A stretch of DNA of 64,000 nt from Opitutia bacterium (lineage in GTDB: Bacteria > Verrucomicrobiota > Verrucomicrobiia > Opitutales > Opitutaceae). The stretch covers positions 576,001 through 640,000 of the forward strand of contig CANJVR010000002.1 in assembly GCA_947478395.1 (NCBI GenBank). The letters are read 5' to 3'. The position numbers were made by a program. This document shows positions 18,001-24,000 of this stretch, in pieces (position 1 is the stretch's first letter; each line of letters starts with the position of its first letter).

Positions 18001-21000
18001 CGCCGACGAGCGCCACACGCTGCGCCTGCGGTAGGGGGCGCTCGGCACGAGTGCGTGCGTAGGCCGTCCGCTCGAGGGCCCTCCGGCGCGCTCAAGCGAG
18101 CTGACCTAGCTCGAATCCGGCCGACTCGAGCGGATTGAATTTTTTCGCGGCCGTTTTGTGTAGCGGCAGGCGTCTCTGCCTGCCGGGCTTCGGCGTCGTC
18201 GTTTCGGCAGGCAGGGACGCCTGCCGCTACGTCTTTTGCGGCTACGCGTTTCGTTAAACCTTTCTACCGCTTCGCCCAGGATTCGCCTGAGCCGCTCTGC
18301 GGAAAACAAATCCGTCCCACCGCTTCGTCGAAGTCAGCCGCGCCCCGGATGATGTCGATTTCCAGCCGCAAATAATAAAGCGGCAGCGGACAGGTGTGGT
18401 TGTCCACGATCCGAACCGCATCTTTTTCCGTGGTGATGAGACACTCTGCCCCCGCGCGCTGGGCGGCCGCGAAGAGTTCACCGATGTCCTCTTCCTCGTA
18501 GCGATAGTGATCCATGAAACGCTCGCGTTCCATGATGAGTGCACCGAGGTCACGCAGAAATTTCTCGAAGCTTTCGGGCGTAGCGATCCCGCAAAACGCG
18601 AACACGCGCCGACCTTTCAACCACGCCAACGGTTCGCGGGCTCCCGGCGCGTCCGGCGCGACGCCGAATCGTTGCAGATACTGCGGACGGTGGGCGCACT
18701 CGATGATGTCGACCGACGGATTGTATTCGCGAATCGTCGCCTCGAGCTCGGTGTCGCGCTGGCCGTTCGACTTCGTTAGAAAAACGTAGCTCGCGCGCTT
18801 CAGATGTTTGATCGGCTCACGCAGTATGCCACGCGGCAGGAGGTGGCCGTTGCCGAACGGGTTGGTTTTGTCGATGAGCAGCAGATTAAGCCGGCCCTTG
18901 AGCGGCATGTACTGAAATCCGTCGTCGAGAATCAGGGTGTCGCACCCGAAGCGTTTGATCGCGTACGCGCCAGATTTGACGCGATTTTTGTCCACGAGCA
19001 CGACGACGCCGGGAAGGTTGCGCGCGAGCATGTACGGCTCGTCGCCCGCCTGCTCGCTGTCGAGGAGGACCTTCTCGCCGTCGCTCACCACGCGCGGCGG
19101 TGGCTCGGCGGTGTGAGTGAGTTGGAACCACCAGCGCTGCCAAAGCGGCGCGGTCTTGCTTTTGTAGCCACGACTAAGAATGGCGACCTTGCGTCCGCGA
19201 TCGCGCAGTGCCCGCGCAAATTTTTCCACGACCGGGGTCTTGCCCGTACCGCCGGCGGTGAGGTTGCCGACCACGACGACGAGACAGCCGAGCGGTTGAT
19301 CGCGCAAGATCCGGTGGCGATAAAGCCAGAGCTTTAACTGCGCCCCGCCGTTCCACAGCCAGGAGAGCGACTGCAAAAACGCGGCGTACAAACTCGCCCC
19401 GGCATCGGCGCGGCGGTCGAGCACGATGTCGACCGTGTAAAGTTCGAACGCCCGAAATTTTTTCTTCAGCCAGGAAAGCGCCATGAATAGGTGTCCGCGA
19501 TGAAGGTTGACGCGCTCCGCCGCGTAAACTGTTTTTCAGCCCTCACCGCGCTAACTATGAGCTATAAACTTTTCATTCCCGGTCCTATCGCCGTCTCGGA
19601 AAAAACGCTTCGCGCCATGGCCCAGCCCATGATCGGCCACCGCAGCACCGACTTCGTCGCACTCTACAACTCGATCCAGCCCGATTTGCAGGCCCTCGCT
19701 TCCACGAAGGATCCCGTTTATATTTCGACCAGCTCGGCCTGGGGCGTGATGGAAGGCGCCCTGCGCAACGTCACCCAAAAGAAGGTGTTGAACTGCATGA
19801 ACGGCGCGTTCTCGGACAAGTGGAACGACGTCGCTCTCCGTTGCGGTAAACCGGCCACCGCGCTCAAGTTCGACTGGGGCCAGCCCATCGATCCCGAGGC
19901 CATCCGCCGCGAACTCGCCACGGGCGCCTACGATTCAATCACGCTGATCCACAACGAAACCTCCTGCGGTTGCATGAGCGATCTGCCGGCGATCATGGCG
20001 GTGCTGCGCGAGTTCCCCGACGTGATCTCAATCGTGGACACCGTCAGCTCGTTCAGCGGCATGCCGATTAAGAAGGATGAACTCGGCATCGACATCCTCA
20101 TCACCGGTTCCCAAAAGGCGCTCGCGCTCCCGCCTGGCCTCTCCCTCATCTCGGCGTCGAAACGCGCGCTCGACCGCGCCGCCAAATCGCCCGAACGCGG
20201 TTACTATTTCGACCTGATCGAGTTTCAGAAAAATCATGAAAACGGCATGACGCCCAGCACGCCAGTCATCCCGCTGATTTACGCGCTCAAATCGAAACTC
20301 GAAGACATCAAGGCCGAGGGCTACGAAACGCGCTACGCCCGCCACGCGCGATTGAACAAAACCGTGCGCGACTTCATTTTCTCAAAAGGTTTCACGCTGT
20401 TTCCGAAGGAAGGCTACGGTTCGGTCACGCTGAACTGTTTCGCCAACACGCAAAACATCGACCTCGGCGCGCTGAACAAAATCCTGAAGTCGAAGCACAA
20501 GCTCGTGATCGATGGCGGCTACGGCAAACTCAAGGGCAAGACCTTCCGTATTTCGAACATGGGCGACGAAACCGACGAGACGATCGCATCGCTCATCAAA
20601 TCGCTCGACGCCGCCCTTGCTGAGACCCCGAAGGCTGTGGCGGTCTGATATGCACCGGGCGCGAGGGCGCCGCAAAACGCCGCCTCGTTCTGGCAGAGCA
20701 CCAAGGCCGCCGTCGCCGCGGCCTTGGTTAGTCACTTATCTGCCGTTGGCGCCAGCGCCGGAGCACCAGACCAAATCTCCCCGCTCCTTCGCGACCAACT
20801 CTAAAGTGCGGGTCATGGGCGACAGGCAATTGCTCGCGCTTTCCCGGATCGCCCGGTCGCTTTGATCCGTCCGCCCTGGCATCAAACGTTGGTATTTTTC
20901 AACCCGCCGGACGGCGCAAAGAAGCACGAGACGCCGCACTCGCTGAAAACAATTTCTTGCACTTCGTCGCGACGCAGCTAACGGCTCGCGTCAATAAATG

Positions 21001-24000
21001 AAGACTCTGATCATCGCCGAGAAGCCGTCCGTCGCGGCGGATTTGGCCAAGGCGCTCGGGAAAATTCCAAAATCCGGCGATCATTATGAGAATGATGAGT
21101 ATGTGATCTCCTCCGCGGTCGGTCACCTCGTGGAACTCGAGATGCCCGAGGATATCGACAAGAAAAAATACGGTTTCTGGCGCCTGGAAATGCTCCCGAT
21201 CGTTCCGGAAAAATTTGGCCTCAAACCGATCGAGGCCTCCAAGGAACGCTTCAGTCATCTCAAAAAGCTCCTCGCCCGCAAAGACATCGATCTGCTCATC
21301 AACGCCTGCGACGCCGGCCGCGAAGGCGAATTGATCTTCACGTACATCTACCAGCTCACAAAGAGCAAAATCCCGTTTAAGCGCGCGTGGATGCAGACGA
21401 TGACCACGGGCGGCATCGAGACGGCCTTCAAGAATCTACGCGGTGCGTCGGAAATGGCCGGCCTCGCCGACGCCGCGCGCTGTCGCAGCGAAAGCGACTG
21501 GCTCATCGGTATCAACGGCACGCGCGCTCTCACCAAGCGTATGTTCGGCTCCCGCGCCGGCAACGTCGCCTCCGTCGGCCGTGTGCAAACCCCCACCCTC
21601 GCCATCATCTTCGCGCGCGAACTCGAAATCCGTAATTTCAAACCTCGCGCATTCTGGCGCGTGACCGCCCAATTCACGATCGCGAAGGGCAGCTACGAAG
21701 GCGTTTACCAGCGCGCCAATTTCAAAAAGTCCGCCGATGACGAACACGACCGCATCGACCGCATTTGGGAACAGGCGCTGGGCGAGGCCGTCCTCGCCGC
21801 CTGTCAGGGCCAGCCATTGGCACGTGTCACCGACGAAAAAAAATCGGCCACGCAAACCGCGCCTCGCCTTTACGATCTGACCACGCTCCAGCGCGAGGCC
21901 AACGGCCGCTTCGGTCTGCCGGCGCGTCGCACGCTCCAAGTGGCGCAGGCCCTCTACGAGCGCCACAAGGTCATCACTTATCCCCGCACCGATTCGCGCG
22001 CGCTGCCCGAGGACTACATTCCCACCTGCCGCGAGACGCTCGGCAACCTGCAGGGCGATCTCGGCAAGCACGCCGCGCACGTCCTGGAGGCCGGCTGGCT
22101 GCGGCCCAACAAGCGCATCTTTAATAATGCTCAGATCTCGGATCACTTCGCGATCATTCCGACCACCACCGAGCCCAAGAATCTCGATGAGATGGAGGCC
22201 AAGGTCTACGATATGATCGCCCGGCGTTTCGTCGCCACGTTTTATCCATCGGCCGAGTTCGACGTGACCACGCGGACCAGCACCGTTGCGCCCGGTCACG
22301 ACTTCAAAACCGAGGGTAAAGTCCTTACGGCCCCCGGCTGGCTCGCGGTCTACGGCAAGAATACCGTCGACGACGATTCGCCCGATTCCAAAGCGCTGCC
22401 CGCGCTCACCGCCGAGGATAAGGCCAAAGCCCCGACGACCGACGCCAAGCTCCACGCCGAATTCACGAAGCCGCCGCCACGCTACACCGAGGCAACGCTG
22501 CTCTCCGCCATGGAAGGCGCGGGCAAACTGGTCGACGACGAAGACATGGCCGAAGCCATGAAAGAGCGCGGGCTCGGCACCCCCGCGACGCGCGCCGACA
22601 CGGTCGAAGGTCTCATCAATCAAAAATACATGGAGCGCGCTCAACGCGAACTCGTGCCGACGCCCAAGGCGGAGTCCCTCCTGCAGTTTCTCACAGCGGT
22701 CAAAGCCGATGCCCTCACGAAACCCGACATGACCGGCGAGTGGGAACAGAAACTCCGCCTCATGGAGCAGGGAAAATTTCCGCGCGACAAATTCATGGCC
22801 GAGATCGTCGAGGTGACCAAAGGCATCGTCGATCGCACGAAGACGTTCGAGGAGGACGATTCCGCTGCGCGCGTGACGGATATCATTTCGCCGACCGACG
22901 GCAAACCGATGCTCGAAACCCTCCGCGGCTACAAATCGCAGGACGCGATCCTGATGGTGTACAAAGTTGTCACCGGTCGAAAGCTGGAGGAGGCCGAGGT
23001 TAAACAGCTCGTCACAAACGGTGAAATCGGACCGCTCGACGGCTTCGTCTCCCCGCGTACGGGCAATCGTTTCCCGGCGAAACTCGTGCTGGCCGACGAT
23101 CCCAAGCACGAAGGCAAACGCCGCGTCGACCTCGATTTTGGCAACAAGTTCGTGCTCTCCGAGCTCACGGCGTTCTGGACTGACCCCAAGACTGGCGCGG
23201 AACTCTGCGAAGCGCCGACCAGCTACGTGCTCCGCGAAAAGAACGGCGATGTTTACGAACAGACCTTCAGCGTGGGCCGACTCATGTGCCAAAAGCCGAT
23301 CACCCGCGAAATCGCCATCCAGCTCGTTTCACAGTCGAAGACAGATCTTATTCAGAGCTTCATTTCGAAAAAGGGCCGCCCCTTCGACGCGTTCCTTGTT
23401 CGCTCCGGCGCAAAATTTTCCTGGGAGTTCCCGCCGCGCAAACCGCGCGTCGGCAAAGACGGCAAAACCATCGAACGGAAAGCCAAGGTGCCGGTCGATT
23501 TCTCGAAGGCGCAAAAACTCATCGAGAGCAAACTTCACGACGGACAGCTCTGGCTGACGGCGGATGCATTTCTCGTCACGAAGCCGCAGGCGGACGGCAG
23601 TCTGCGCCCGGTGTTCGAGGTGAAGCGCGTCCTTTGTCAGAAGGAGCTGCCCGTCGAGGAAATCGAGCGGCTCGTGACCGACGGTCGCACCGGACTGATC
23701 GATGATCTCGTTTCGAAACGCGGTTCGACCTTCAGCGCTTATCTTGTGCTTTCGAAAGACAAGAAAAAGGCCGAATTCGAATTTCCGCCGCGGTAAGTTC
23801 GCGTGGGAATACCCAGCCCTCTGGTGGGCCCTTCCTGTTCAGCGTGAGTCGGTCGACCCGACCTTTGGCCGGGTTCCGAAAACCCGCCAAAGGTCCGTTC
23901 TATACCGACGATGAACTAACGCGTCCGAGTGAGGCCTCGCGCACCCGGAGTCGAAAACCGCTGGCCCAGCTATCCCGCCACAGCGAACTCACCGTTTCAG

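Follow-up and report, generated by a model that had tools for sequence, protein, structure and literature searches.

A topoisomerase III in place of topoisomerase I in most Verrucomicrobiia

INTRODUCTION

Several reviews, in the excerpts available, assign topoisomerase I (Topo I, TopA) to every bacterium and treat topoisomerase III (Topo III, TopB) as merely an extra (PMC2647321, PMC7140829, PMC10969213, PMC9369019, PMC7398561). The window analyzed here, a stretch of 64,000 nucleotides from an Opitutia bacterium (GCA_947478395.1, contig CANJVR010000002.1, positions 576,001 to 640,000), carries a type IA topoisomerase gene that raises two questions: is topA really missing from this genome and its relatives, and if so, does a Topo III do its work?

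RESULTS

topB is the sole type IA gene in this genome

The 932-aa product scores 553.4 bits against TIGR01056 (topB), over the cut-off of 515.75, versus 225.7 bits against TIGR01051 (topA), under the cut-off of 456.4. It is also over the cut-off for PRK07726. The top-scoring model is PRK08173 (NF006032), at 1047.8 bits against a curated cut-off of 1058, with close relatives of the protein's own family scoring 1018–1062, on both sides of that value. This best model was absent from the first-pass annotation. By Pfam, the protein comprises Toprim, Topoisom_bac and three copies of PF13342, the three C-terminal repeats reported before; neither PF01396 (Topo_C_ZnRpt) nor PF13368 (Topo_C_Rpt) was detected. 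In a tree, support of 100 separates it from TopA and puts it on the TopB side together with E. coli Topo III. The features are as follows.

20998..23796, + strand: topB, 932 aa, encoding a PRK08173-clade DNA topoisomerase III; the genome's only type IA gene (profile HMMs, tblastn, tree)
21004..21384, + strand: Toprim domain, aa 3–129 (PF01751), with a Topo III-type E-K-P-S motif and an acidic metal-binding motif (alignment with E. coli Topo I and III)
21457..22797, + strand: type IA catalytic core, aa 154–600 (PF01131)
21484..21513, + strand: G-strand binding helix, aa 163–172 (alignment with E. coli Topo I and III)
21979..21981, + strand: catalytic tyrosine, Tyr328, aligned to Tyr328 of E. 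coli Topo III and Tyr319 of Topo I
22516..22566, + strand: decatenation-loop insertion, aa 507–523, absent from TopA (alignment)
22840..23793, + strand: C-terminal domain, aa 615–932, three units of ~100 aa each

The genome (98.83% complete, 9 contigs) has one PF01131 locus, and tblastn searches of it found neither a second type IA core nor TopA-type zinc ribbons. The first-pass annotation had described a genome without Topo I whose single type IA enzyme has a Topo III core, and on both counts it was right. GyrA and a ParC-like gene are encoded as well; searches of this genome for Topo IB and Topo VI A were negative. A promoter and terminator scan at the gene gave results at chance level. Two freshwater RNA runs yielded short, low-depth contigs covering parts of the gene, which by themselves are no measure of expression level.

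A Topo III core with a long repeated tail

Alignment shows the type IA residues E7, D105, E109, Y328 and R330 to be present. The second Asp of the DxD motif is Gly, as in the other non-E. coli TopBs aligned. In E. coli Topo I, Arg169, Arg173 and Tyr177 form the –4 cytosine pocket (excerpts of PMC7587558); here Ser164, Trp168 and Ile172 occupy these positions, the latter two matching E. coli Topo III. The decatenation loop, a 16-residue insertion relative to TopA, has a net acidic charge here, the reverse of the net basic loop in the E. coli enzyme. An acidic loop was considered as a hallmark of the replacing clade and rejected, being common to TopBs of Clostridiaceae and Muribaculaceae. The protein is set apart from TopA by its TIGR01051 score, by its E-K-P-S motif in place of TopA's E-S-P-x-K, by the missing pocket and by the loop. 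Its core's closest PDB match is E. coli Topo III (296 bits, versus ~100 bits for Topo I).

Each tail unit is built as a four-stranded meander followed by the PF13342 helix and sheet. Many relatives have CxxC motifs in the meander; the window's protein has none. Neither the predicted tail (318 aa, pLDDT 90) nor a single predicted unit (100 aa, pLDDT 94) had a Foldseek match at E 0.001, and their best Z scores in the fold searches were 4.5 and 5.2. The unit's best score reflects 39 residues at an rmsd of 2.0 to an unrelated propeller, and no TopA chain was among the matches listed. The last unit had no BLASTP match in the tail of E. coli TopA. Because the fold searches gave no clear match, we name no structural relative of the tail, a result that does not establish a new fold.

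TopA and TopB exclude each other across the class

Among 201 genomes of Verrucomicrobiia, 27 have TopA, 173 have TopB, none has both and one (G072) has neither. The earlier statement that the two never occur together therefore agrees with all 201 genomes. Its companion, that every genome has exactly one type IA gene, does not stand: 14 of the 201 show multiple PF01131 matches, and while three of these are split genes and three are near-duplicates of one type, eight hold an additional, divergent TopB-type gene. That every second copy is mobile was considered and rejected: those in G195 sit among conjugation genes, but the g18 copies sit beside gyrBA.

In other classes, TopA is over the cut-off in 96 of 100 genomes and split in 3 more, so TopA is ancestral. 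RpoB trees place 43 crown rows on one side (SH-aLRT 97 and 95); a reduced, careful RpoB tree leaves crown monophyly without resolution. The exclusion amounts to few events, not 200: a single ancient replacement in the crown, and several swaps within the deep family f15. TopA has come back in none of the crown genomes (0 of 165 TopB genomes outside f15).

Such a pattern could be an artefact, if HMMs misclassified a divergent TopA or if topA were missing from incomplete assemblies. Many assemblies are indeed fragmented, and G072, a 96% complete assembly in 290 contigs, lacks any type IA gene and hence shows that assemblies can drop it. But TopA was not detected in single-contig genomes either, a control set was positive in 14 of 14 cases, the tree places the protein beside E. 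coli Topo III (support 100), and the motifs and the loop are of Topo III type. We regard this explanation as very improbable and already largely refuted.

TopB occupies the topA slot

The order aroB-X-dprA-topA-xerC is found in an outgroup genome (G286) and at all 12 TopA loci of the class. In the crown, TopB adjoins dprA, aroB or xerC at 13 of 27 loci and is out of the slot at 14; the window's gene lies outside the dprA slot, which counts against the proposed replacement. Occupation of the TopA slot (aroB-dprA-top-xerC) by TopB is new here.

The f15 genomes, mostly fragmented assemblies, each have one core (34 of 34): 23 are TopA and 11 are chimeras, with a TopB core fused to TopA zinc ribbons in this same slot. 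PF01396 was seen on TopB cores in f15 chimeras only. Their zinc ribbons are 63.5–71.4% identical to f15 TopA tails, versus 25–26% for the cores. The chimeric cores form one clade (99/97), yet the genomes carrying them do not (AU p 7.7e-5) and are interleaved with TopA genomes on the RpoB tree. Within one genus, the DNA aligns at 87% identity as far as the dprA end, shows no identity across the core and reaches 95.3% along 212 nt of tail. Displacement of TopA by TopB is well supported, and better so than the first-pass annotation knew, because of the shared slot, the TopB-core/TopA-tail chimeras and the genomes without Topo IV, IB or VI.

Swaps through shared flanks (dprA, zinc ribbons) would by themselves leave one gene per genome. 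Conceivably, then, only a generic type IA job is kept, namely removal of R-loops, D-loops and hemicatenanes, which either subfamily could do; exclusion would follow from redundancy and from the way homologous replacement works at a single slot, with no specialized relaxase and no adapted tail. Reviews that call Topo I and III mutual back-ups (PMC7140829, in the part available) fit this idea. So do PF13342 tails on accessory TopBs (second copies and plasmid copies), in genomes that do not need them as sole enzyme, an observation that also speaks against the tail as an adaptation. Yet exclusion persists at the 14 crown loci where TopB is out of the slot, and TopA has not returned in the non-f15 TopB genomes, whereas E. 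coli-type TopBs of Burkholderiales do coexist with TopA. We consider this alternative unlikely.

The same clade in Burkholderiales

The TopB-for-TopA pattern reaches beyond Verrucomicrobiia, to Burkholderiales and to genome G202. Of 151 Burkholderiales genomes, 71 have only TopB, 79 only TopA and 1 both; TopB follows dprA at 6 of 7 loci, and TopA does so at 3 of 3. The window's core and chromosomal Burkholderiales TopB fall in one 38-row clade (100/99), with 55% core identity, and betaproteobacterial plasmid copies belong to the same clade. The window's protein differs in scoring 10 bits under the PRK08173 cut-off and in having three tail units without cysteines. PRK08173 is an annotation label; a primer table lists an Acidovorax topB as 'DNA topoisomerase III, Burkholderia type' (PMC6274382), and no paper describing the family as a TopA replacement was found in the literature searched. 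A quick tree nests Burkholderiales TopB among Verrucomicrobiia (99), but a careful tree was not decisive on the direction of transfer and the AU test keeps separate clades (p 0.178), so no donor is named.

In B. cenocepacia, topB is essential and its knockdown is hypersusceptible to novobiocin (PMC6256756). Deletion of E. coli topB has the same effect, via inhibition of Topo IV (excerpts of PMC7140829). If topB encoded a pure relaxase, we would expect inhibition of gyrase to ease its loss, and the Burkholderia phenotype points towards decatenation.

Other topoisomerases in TopB genomes

Of the 173 TopB genomes, 80 show a single GyrA/ParC match and lack Topo IB; in 3 of these 80 the match is merely ParC-like or partial, and the search for Topo VI covered 60 genomes. 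Eight single-contig genomes have gyrase and TopB only, also without Topo VI A, and the GyrA box is present in 6 of 6 checked. Hence Topo IV is not a general stand-in. All 27 TopA genomes have one GyrA/ParC match. A second GyrA/ParC gene occurs in the window's genome and in 81 of 173 TopB genomes, and Topo IB in 23 of 173.

These counts bear on whether TopB is still mainly a decatenase. TopA would then have been lost because Topo IV or Topo IB supplies relaxation in the genomes that have them, or because a weak or self-limiting gyrase leaves little to relax. The retained loop and missing –4 cytosine pocket, the ParC-like gene in the window's genome and the novobiocin-hypersusceptible knockdown favor this view and count against a relaxase. 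Overproduced Topo IV rescues topA and topA topB nulls (PMC10969213, in the part available), and decatenation would be a useful activity in genomes without Topo IV. However, the 80 genomes have neither Topo IB nor a second GyrA/ParC, closely related genomes that each carry the same lone gyrase gene alternate between TopA and TopB, and the chimeras have kept TopA zinc ribbons. On balance, a TopB that is mainly a decatenase seems improbable.

DISCUSSION

Judging from the slot, the chimeras and genome content, TopB probably relaxes supercoils as Topo I does. We propose that a PRK08173-clade Topo III replaced topA in place near the base of crown Verrucomicrobiia and that, in the window's own order, topB afterwards left the dprA slot. 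As the cell's sole strand-passing type IA enzyme, TopB would take over Topo I's job, clearing transcription-driven negative supercoils and curbing R-loops against gyrase, and would probably still decatenate too. E. coli Topo III can relax supercoils in fast runs, with long lags as the limit (excerpts of PMC3488232). The enabling change is likely to have been the long repeated C-terminal domain, of ~200–330 aa where the E. coli enzyme has ~40 aa, which may act as an extra DNA-binding arm equivalent to TopA's zinc ribbons.

A wider generalization is offered tentatively, as somewhat less than an even prospect. Topo I may not be universal in bacteria, one Topo III clade having repeatedly taken the topA slot (crown Verrucomicrobiia, several f15 swaps, Burkholderiales, G202) and become the main relaxase owing to its tail. 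The C-terminal arm rather than the core would then set the division of labor between Topo I and Topo III, the cores would be exchangeable cassettes, and PF13342 units would be a third kind of strand-binding or RNA-polymerase-coupling tail.

Most of the class Verrucomicrobiia, with gut and soil lineages among them, break the reviews' rule of a universal Topo I, and roughly half of the sampled Burkholderiales do so too. In the literature searched, no paper reporting a replacement of TopA by TopB turned up, nor any essentiality data for topB in Akkermansia. Natural chimeras, and pairs of TopA and chimera within one genus, make the contributions of core and tail to relaxation versus decatenation testable. 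Work directed at Topo I, inhibitors included, may fail to transfer to TopB-only groups.

Comparison with known systems

With E. coli Topo III (PDB 1d6m, 2o19) the window's protein shares 33% core identity, the equivalents of Lys8, Trp170, Ile174, Arg178 and Tyr328, and the decatenation-loop insertion. It differs in its tail (~310 aa in three repeat units, versus ~40 aa), in the net charge of its loop and in being the genome's one type IA enzyme rather than a TopA accessory.

To bacterial TopA it is linked by the dprA-xerC slot that TopB holds in relatives and by a long repeated tail. But core identity is 26%, the –4 cytosine pocket is missing, the decatenation loop is present, and the tail repeats have neither a sequence match to the E. 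coli TopA tail nor a clear structural match in the PDB. Mycobacterium has gyrase plus TopA as its minimal set; gyrase plus TopB is the same two-enzyme minimal set in the eight single-contig genomes.

Archaeal Topo III offers a precedent for cells that have no Topo I and live on an enzyme of Topo III type (excerpts of PMC2647321). There, however, most lineages have no gyrase to oppose, although gyrase was transferred to several Euryarchaea (same excerpts), whereas the TopB described here coexists with gyrase.

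Identity of the window enzyme

The genome (98.83% complete, 9 contigs) has a single locus with the type IA core (PF01131), and it lies in the window:

20998-23796, + strand (contig C2, 596998-599796): topB ORF, encoding P0001, 932 aa
Upstream of topB: class V aminotransferase
Downstream of topB: class II aldolase
27653-31492, - strand: smc gene (TIGR02168, 941 bits), ~4 kb from topB

P0001 is a topoisomerase III. Its top NCBIfam model is the Topo III model PRK08173 (1047.8 bits; cut 1058), followed by PRK07726 (606.3 bits; cut 597) and TIGR01056 topB (553.4 bits; cut 515.75); TIGR01051 topA gave 225.7 bits against a cut of 456.4. 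The Pfam domains are Toprim, Topoisom_bac and three copies of the TopB tail repeat PF13342. Among PDB entries, E. coli Topo III scores highest (296 bits, versus ~100 for Topo I), and a tree built from 68 type IA cores places P0001 on the same side as that enzyme (support 100). Its closest relatives (76-90%), where named, mostly carry Opitutaceae-type names.

Alignment of the core showed an E-K-P-S Toprim motif, Tyr328 and a 16-residue decatenation-loop insertion that is absent from TopA. At the positions of the -4 cytosine pocket, formed in Topo I by Arg169, Arg173 and Tyr177 (PMC7587558), P0001 has Ser, Trp and Ile. Its decatenation loop is net acidic, as in unrelated TopBs, whereas that of E. 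coli Topo III is not. The tail spans ~310 aa, compared with ~40 aa in E. coli Topo III. AlphaFold modelled it confidently as three units, each predicted to be a four-stranded meander plus helix and sheet, and neither the predicted tail nor a single unit matched a structural relative in the PDB. CxxC motifs, found in the tail units of many relatives, are absent from those of P0001.

TopA and TopB across Verrucomicrobiia

We surveyed 201 genomes of the class, each at least 90% complete. TopA scored over cut-off in 27, all from families f7, f15, f42 and f55, and TopB was the only form in 173. None had both, in agreement with the first-pass annotation that the two never co-occur; no PRK08173-type gene was found in the 27 TopA genomes (best E 1e-22 to 1e-39, or no match at 1e-20). 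An artefact is a very improbable source of this pattern. One genome (G072; 96% complete, 290 contigs) had neither form and no type IA gene, probably reflecting an assembly gap.

The accompanying claim of exactly one type IA gene per genome was too strict, as 14/201 had more than one PF01131 match: three had split genes, three had near-duplicates of one type and eight had a further divergent TopB-type gene. Some of the extra TopB-type genes lie amid conjugation genes, others beside gyrBA. The second TopB of genus g18 (L301:8911-11238 in G157; also G073:C7 and G163:C9) is shorter, with one PF13342, lies two genes from gyrA, is apparently chromosomal and forms a clade separate from resident TopB in the core tree. 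A very divergent type IA-like ORF of 597 aa (L080:628-2418, - strand, G012:C72) is ~21% identical to resident TopBs.

Ancestry of the replacement

TopA is the ancestral state, since it scored over cut in 96/100 genomes from other classes of the phylum and was split in three more. In the same set, G202 lacked TopA and had just a gene of PRK08173 type, which the assembly splits across two frames; this 1.7-Mb genome (G202:C18, L338/L339) is possibly a further independent replacement. G206, from another class of the phylum, encodes both a separate TopA and a 1450-aa protein in which a type IA core is fused to a RecQ-type helicase with DEAD, Helicase_C, RecQ_Zn_bind and HRDC domains (L295:50-4399, + strand, contig C429).

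TopA was lost within the class. In RpoB trees the crown of the class, which is TopB-only, formed one side (43 rows, SH-aLRT 97 and 95), with the TopA families outside; a reduced careful RpoB tree did not resolve the crown. The exclusion comes from few events, so 201 genomes are not 201 tests. The TopB core of G177 (C4, L279, family f18) is 74.7% identical to P0001, although G177 itself branches elsewhere in the RpoB tree; this suggests that TopB alleles may have been transferred between crown lineages.

TopB in the topA slot

The order aroB-X-dprA-topA-xerC occurs in outgroup G286, not in outgroup G204, and was seen at 12/12 TopA loci examined in the class, as far as contigs reach. Crown TopB adjoins dprA, aroB or xerC in 13/27 loci examined, and the complete order surrounds it in two genomes (G170, G014). 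It lies away from the slot in the other 14, including 5/5 from the window's own order; in the window genome, dprA and topB are on different contigs. A conserved gene without a Pfam match follows aroB in deep families, G286 and the window genome:

Contig C1, 362406-362996: ~200-aa gene after aroB (also at L083/L084, between aroB and dprA)

Chimeras in family f15

All 34 genomes of this deep family (each at least 85% complete) have a single type IA core, 23 of them TopA. The 11 non-TopA genes are all chimeras within the topA slot, two cut short by assembly. They comprise a TopB core, one PF13342 unit and then TopA zinc ribbons (PF01396; Pfam on 3/11). The chimeras share 25-26% core identity with f15 TopA and 52-55% with P0001, and the last three ribbons of six complete chimeras are 63.5-71.4% identical to those of four f15 TopAs. 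The cores form one clade (99/97; eight in tree), whereas the genomes carrying them do not (RpoB, AU p 7.7e-5), and two f15 genera contain both forms.

Within one genus, G041 (TopA) and G022 (chimera) share 87% DNA identity up to the end of dprA, no detectable identity in the core and 95.3% across the final 212 nt of tail sequence available. Judged from sequence, this pattern fits the trace expected of core exchange by recombination via dprA and the ribbons. For any single chimera, misassembly of these fragmented genomes may be responsible. TopA of f15 genus g47 groups with f55 TopA and has seven ribbons, other f15 TopAs having four (L095, L102 versus L098; G136, G184, G190); TopA alleles thus appear to move between families at this slot too.

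Probable role of TopB as sole type IA enzyme

The window genome holds GyrA with a GyrA box and a ParC-like gene; searches there for Topo IB, Topo VI A and TopA-type zinc ribbons found none. A second GyrA/ParC match occurs in the window genome and in 81/173 TopB genomes, and Topo IB in 23 of the 173; Topo VI A was present in 6/60 genomes tested. Yet just one GyrA/ParC match was found in each of 89/173, and 80 of those also lack Topo IB (3/80 have only a ParC-like or partial match). Minimal sets of gyrase plus TopB only were found in eight single-contig genomes (G030, G039, G037, G055, G068, G080, G086, G170), with a GyrA box in 6/6 checked. These eight count against the reading of TopB as a decatenase with relaxation supplied otherwise, which we consider unlikely. 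Each of the 27 TopA genomes likewise has just one GyrA/ParC match, so the swap is independent of Topo IV.

We favor a Topo I-like relaxing job for TopB as the probable role; a generic type IA role is as doubtful as the decatenase reading. TopB would oppose gyrase by relaxing transcription-driven negative supercoils and limiting R-loops, and its tail may serve as the arm that engages DNA. Relaxation by E. coli Topo III proceeds in rapid bursts separated by long waits, and the tail is that enzyme's main structural difference from Topo I (both in the available text of PMC3488232); shortening of these waits by the tail is therefore a plausible route.

Comparison with Burkholderiales and known systems

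We searched 151 genomes of Burkholderiales, the order of a genome reached via a Paraburkholderia locus. TopA was over cut in 80 and PRK08173 in 72, with both in one (G355, whose divergent TopA is on a 105-kb contig) and neither in none. TopB follows dprA in 6/7 loci and TopA in 3/3. A single clade (100/99) unites plasmid copies with the chromosomal TopBs of Burkholderiales and the TopBs of Verrucomicrobiia; the tree gives no donor, and separate clades were not rejected (AU p 0.178). Burkholderia cenocepacia topB, presumably of PRK08173 type given its order, is essential (PMC6256756, in part), as expected if it is the only type IA enzyme of the cell. Knocking it down makes the cells hypersusceptible to novobiocin (same source), an effect also seen on deletion of E. 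coli topB, there through Topo IV (PMC7140829, in part). This points to a decatenating role as well and favors the decatenase reading.

In their available portions, reviews place an omega-like Topo I in all bacterial genomes, with Topo III a second enzyme (PMC2647321), place Topo I in all bacteria (PMC7140829), give TopA plus gyrase as the minimal set (PMC7398561) or leave Verrucomicrobia and Burkholderia unmentioned (PMC9369019). Replacement of TopA by TopB and natural chimeras were unreported in the literature searched, including available parts of PMC10969213 and PMC5714199; supplements or subscription reviews may mention them. A TopB that occupies the topA slot as the cell's only type IA enzyme appears undescribed so far. 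The protein family itself is already known, as annotation: a table in the available text of PMC6274382 carries the label 'DNA topoisomerase III, Burkholderia type', 'topA' there being Topo IB.
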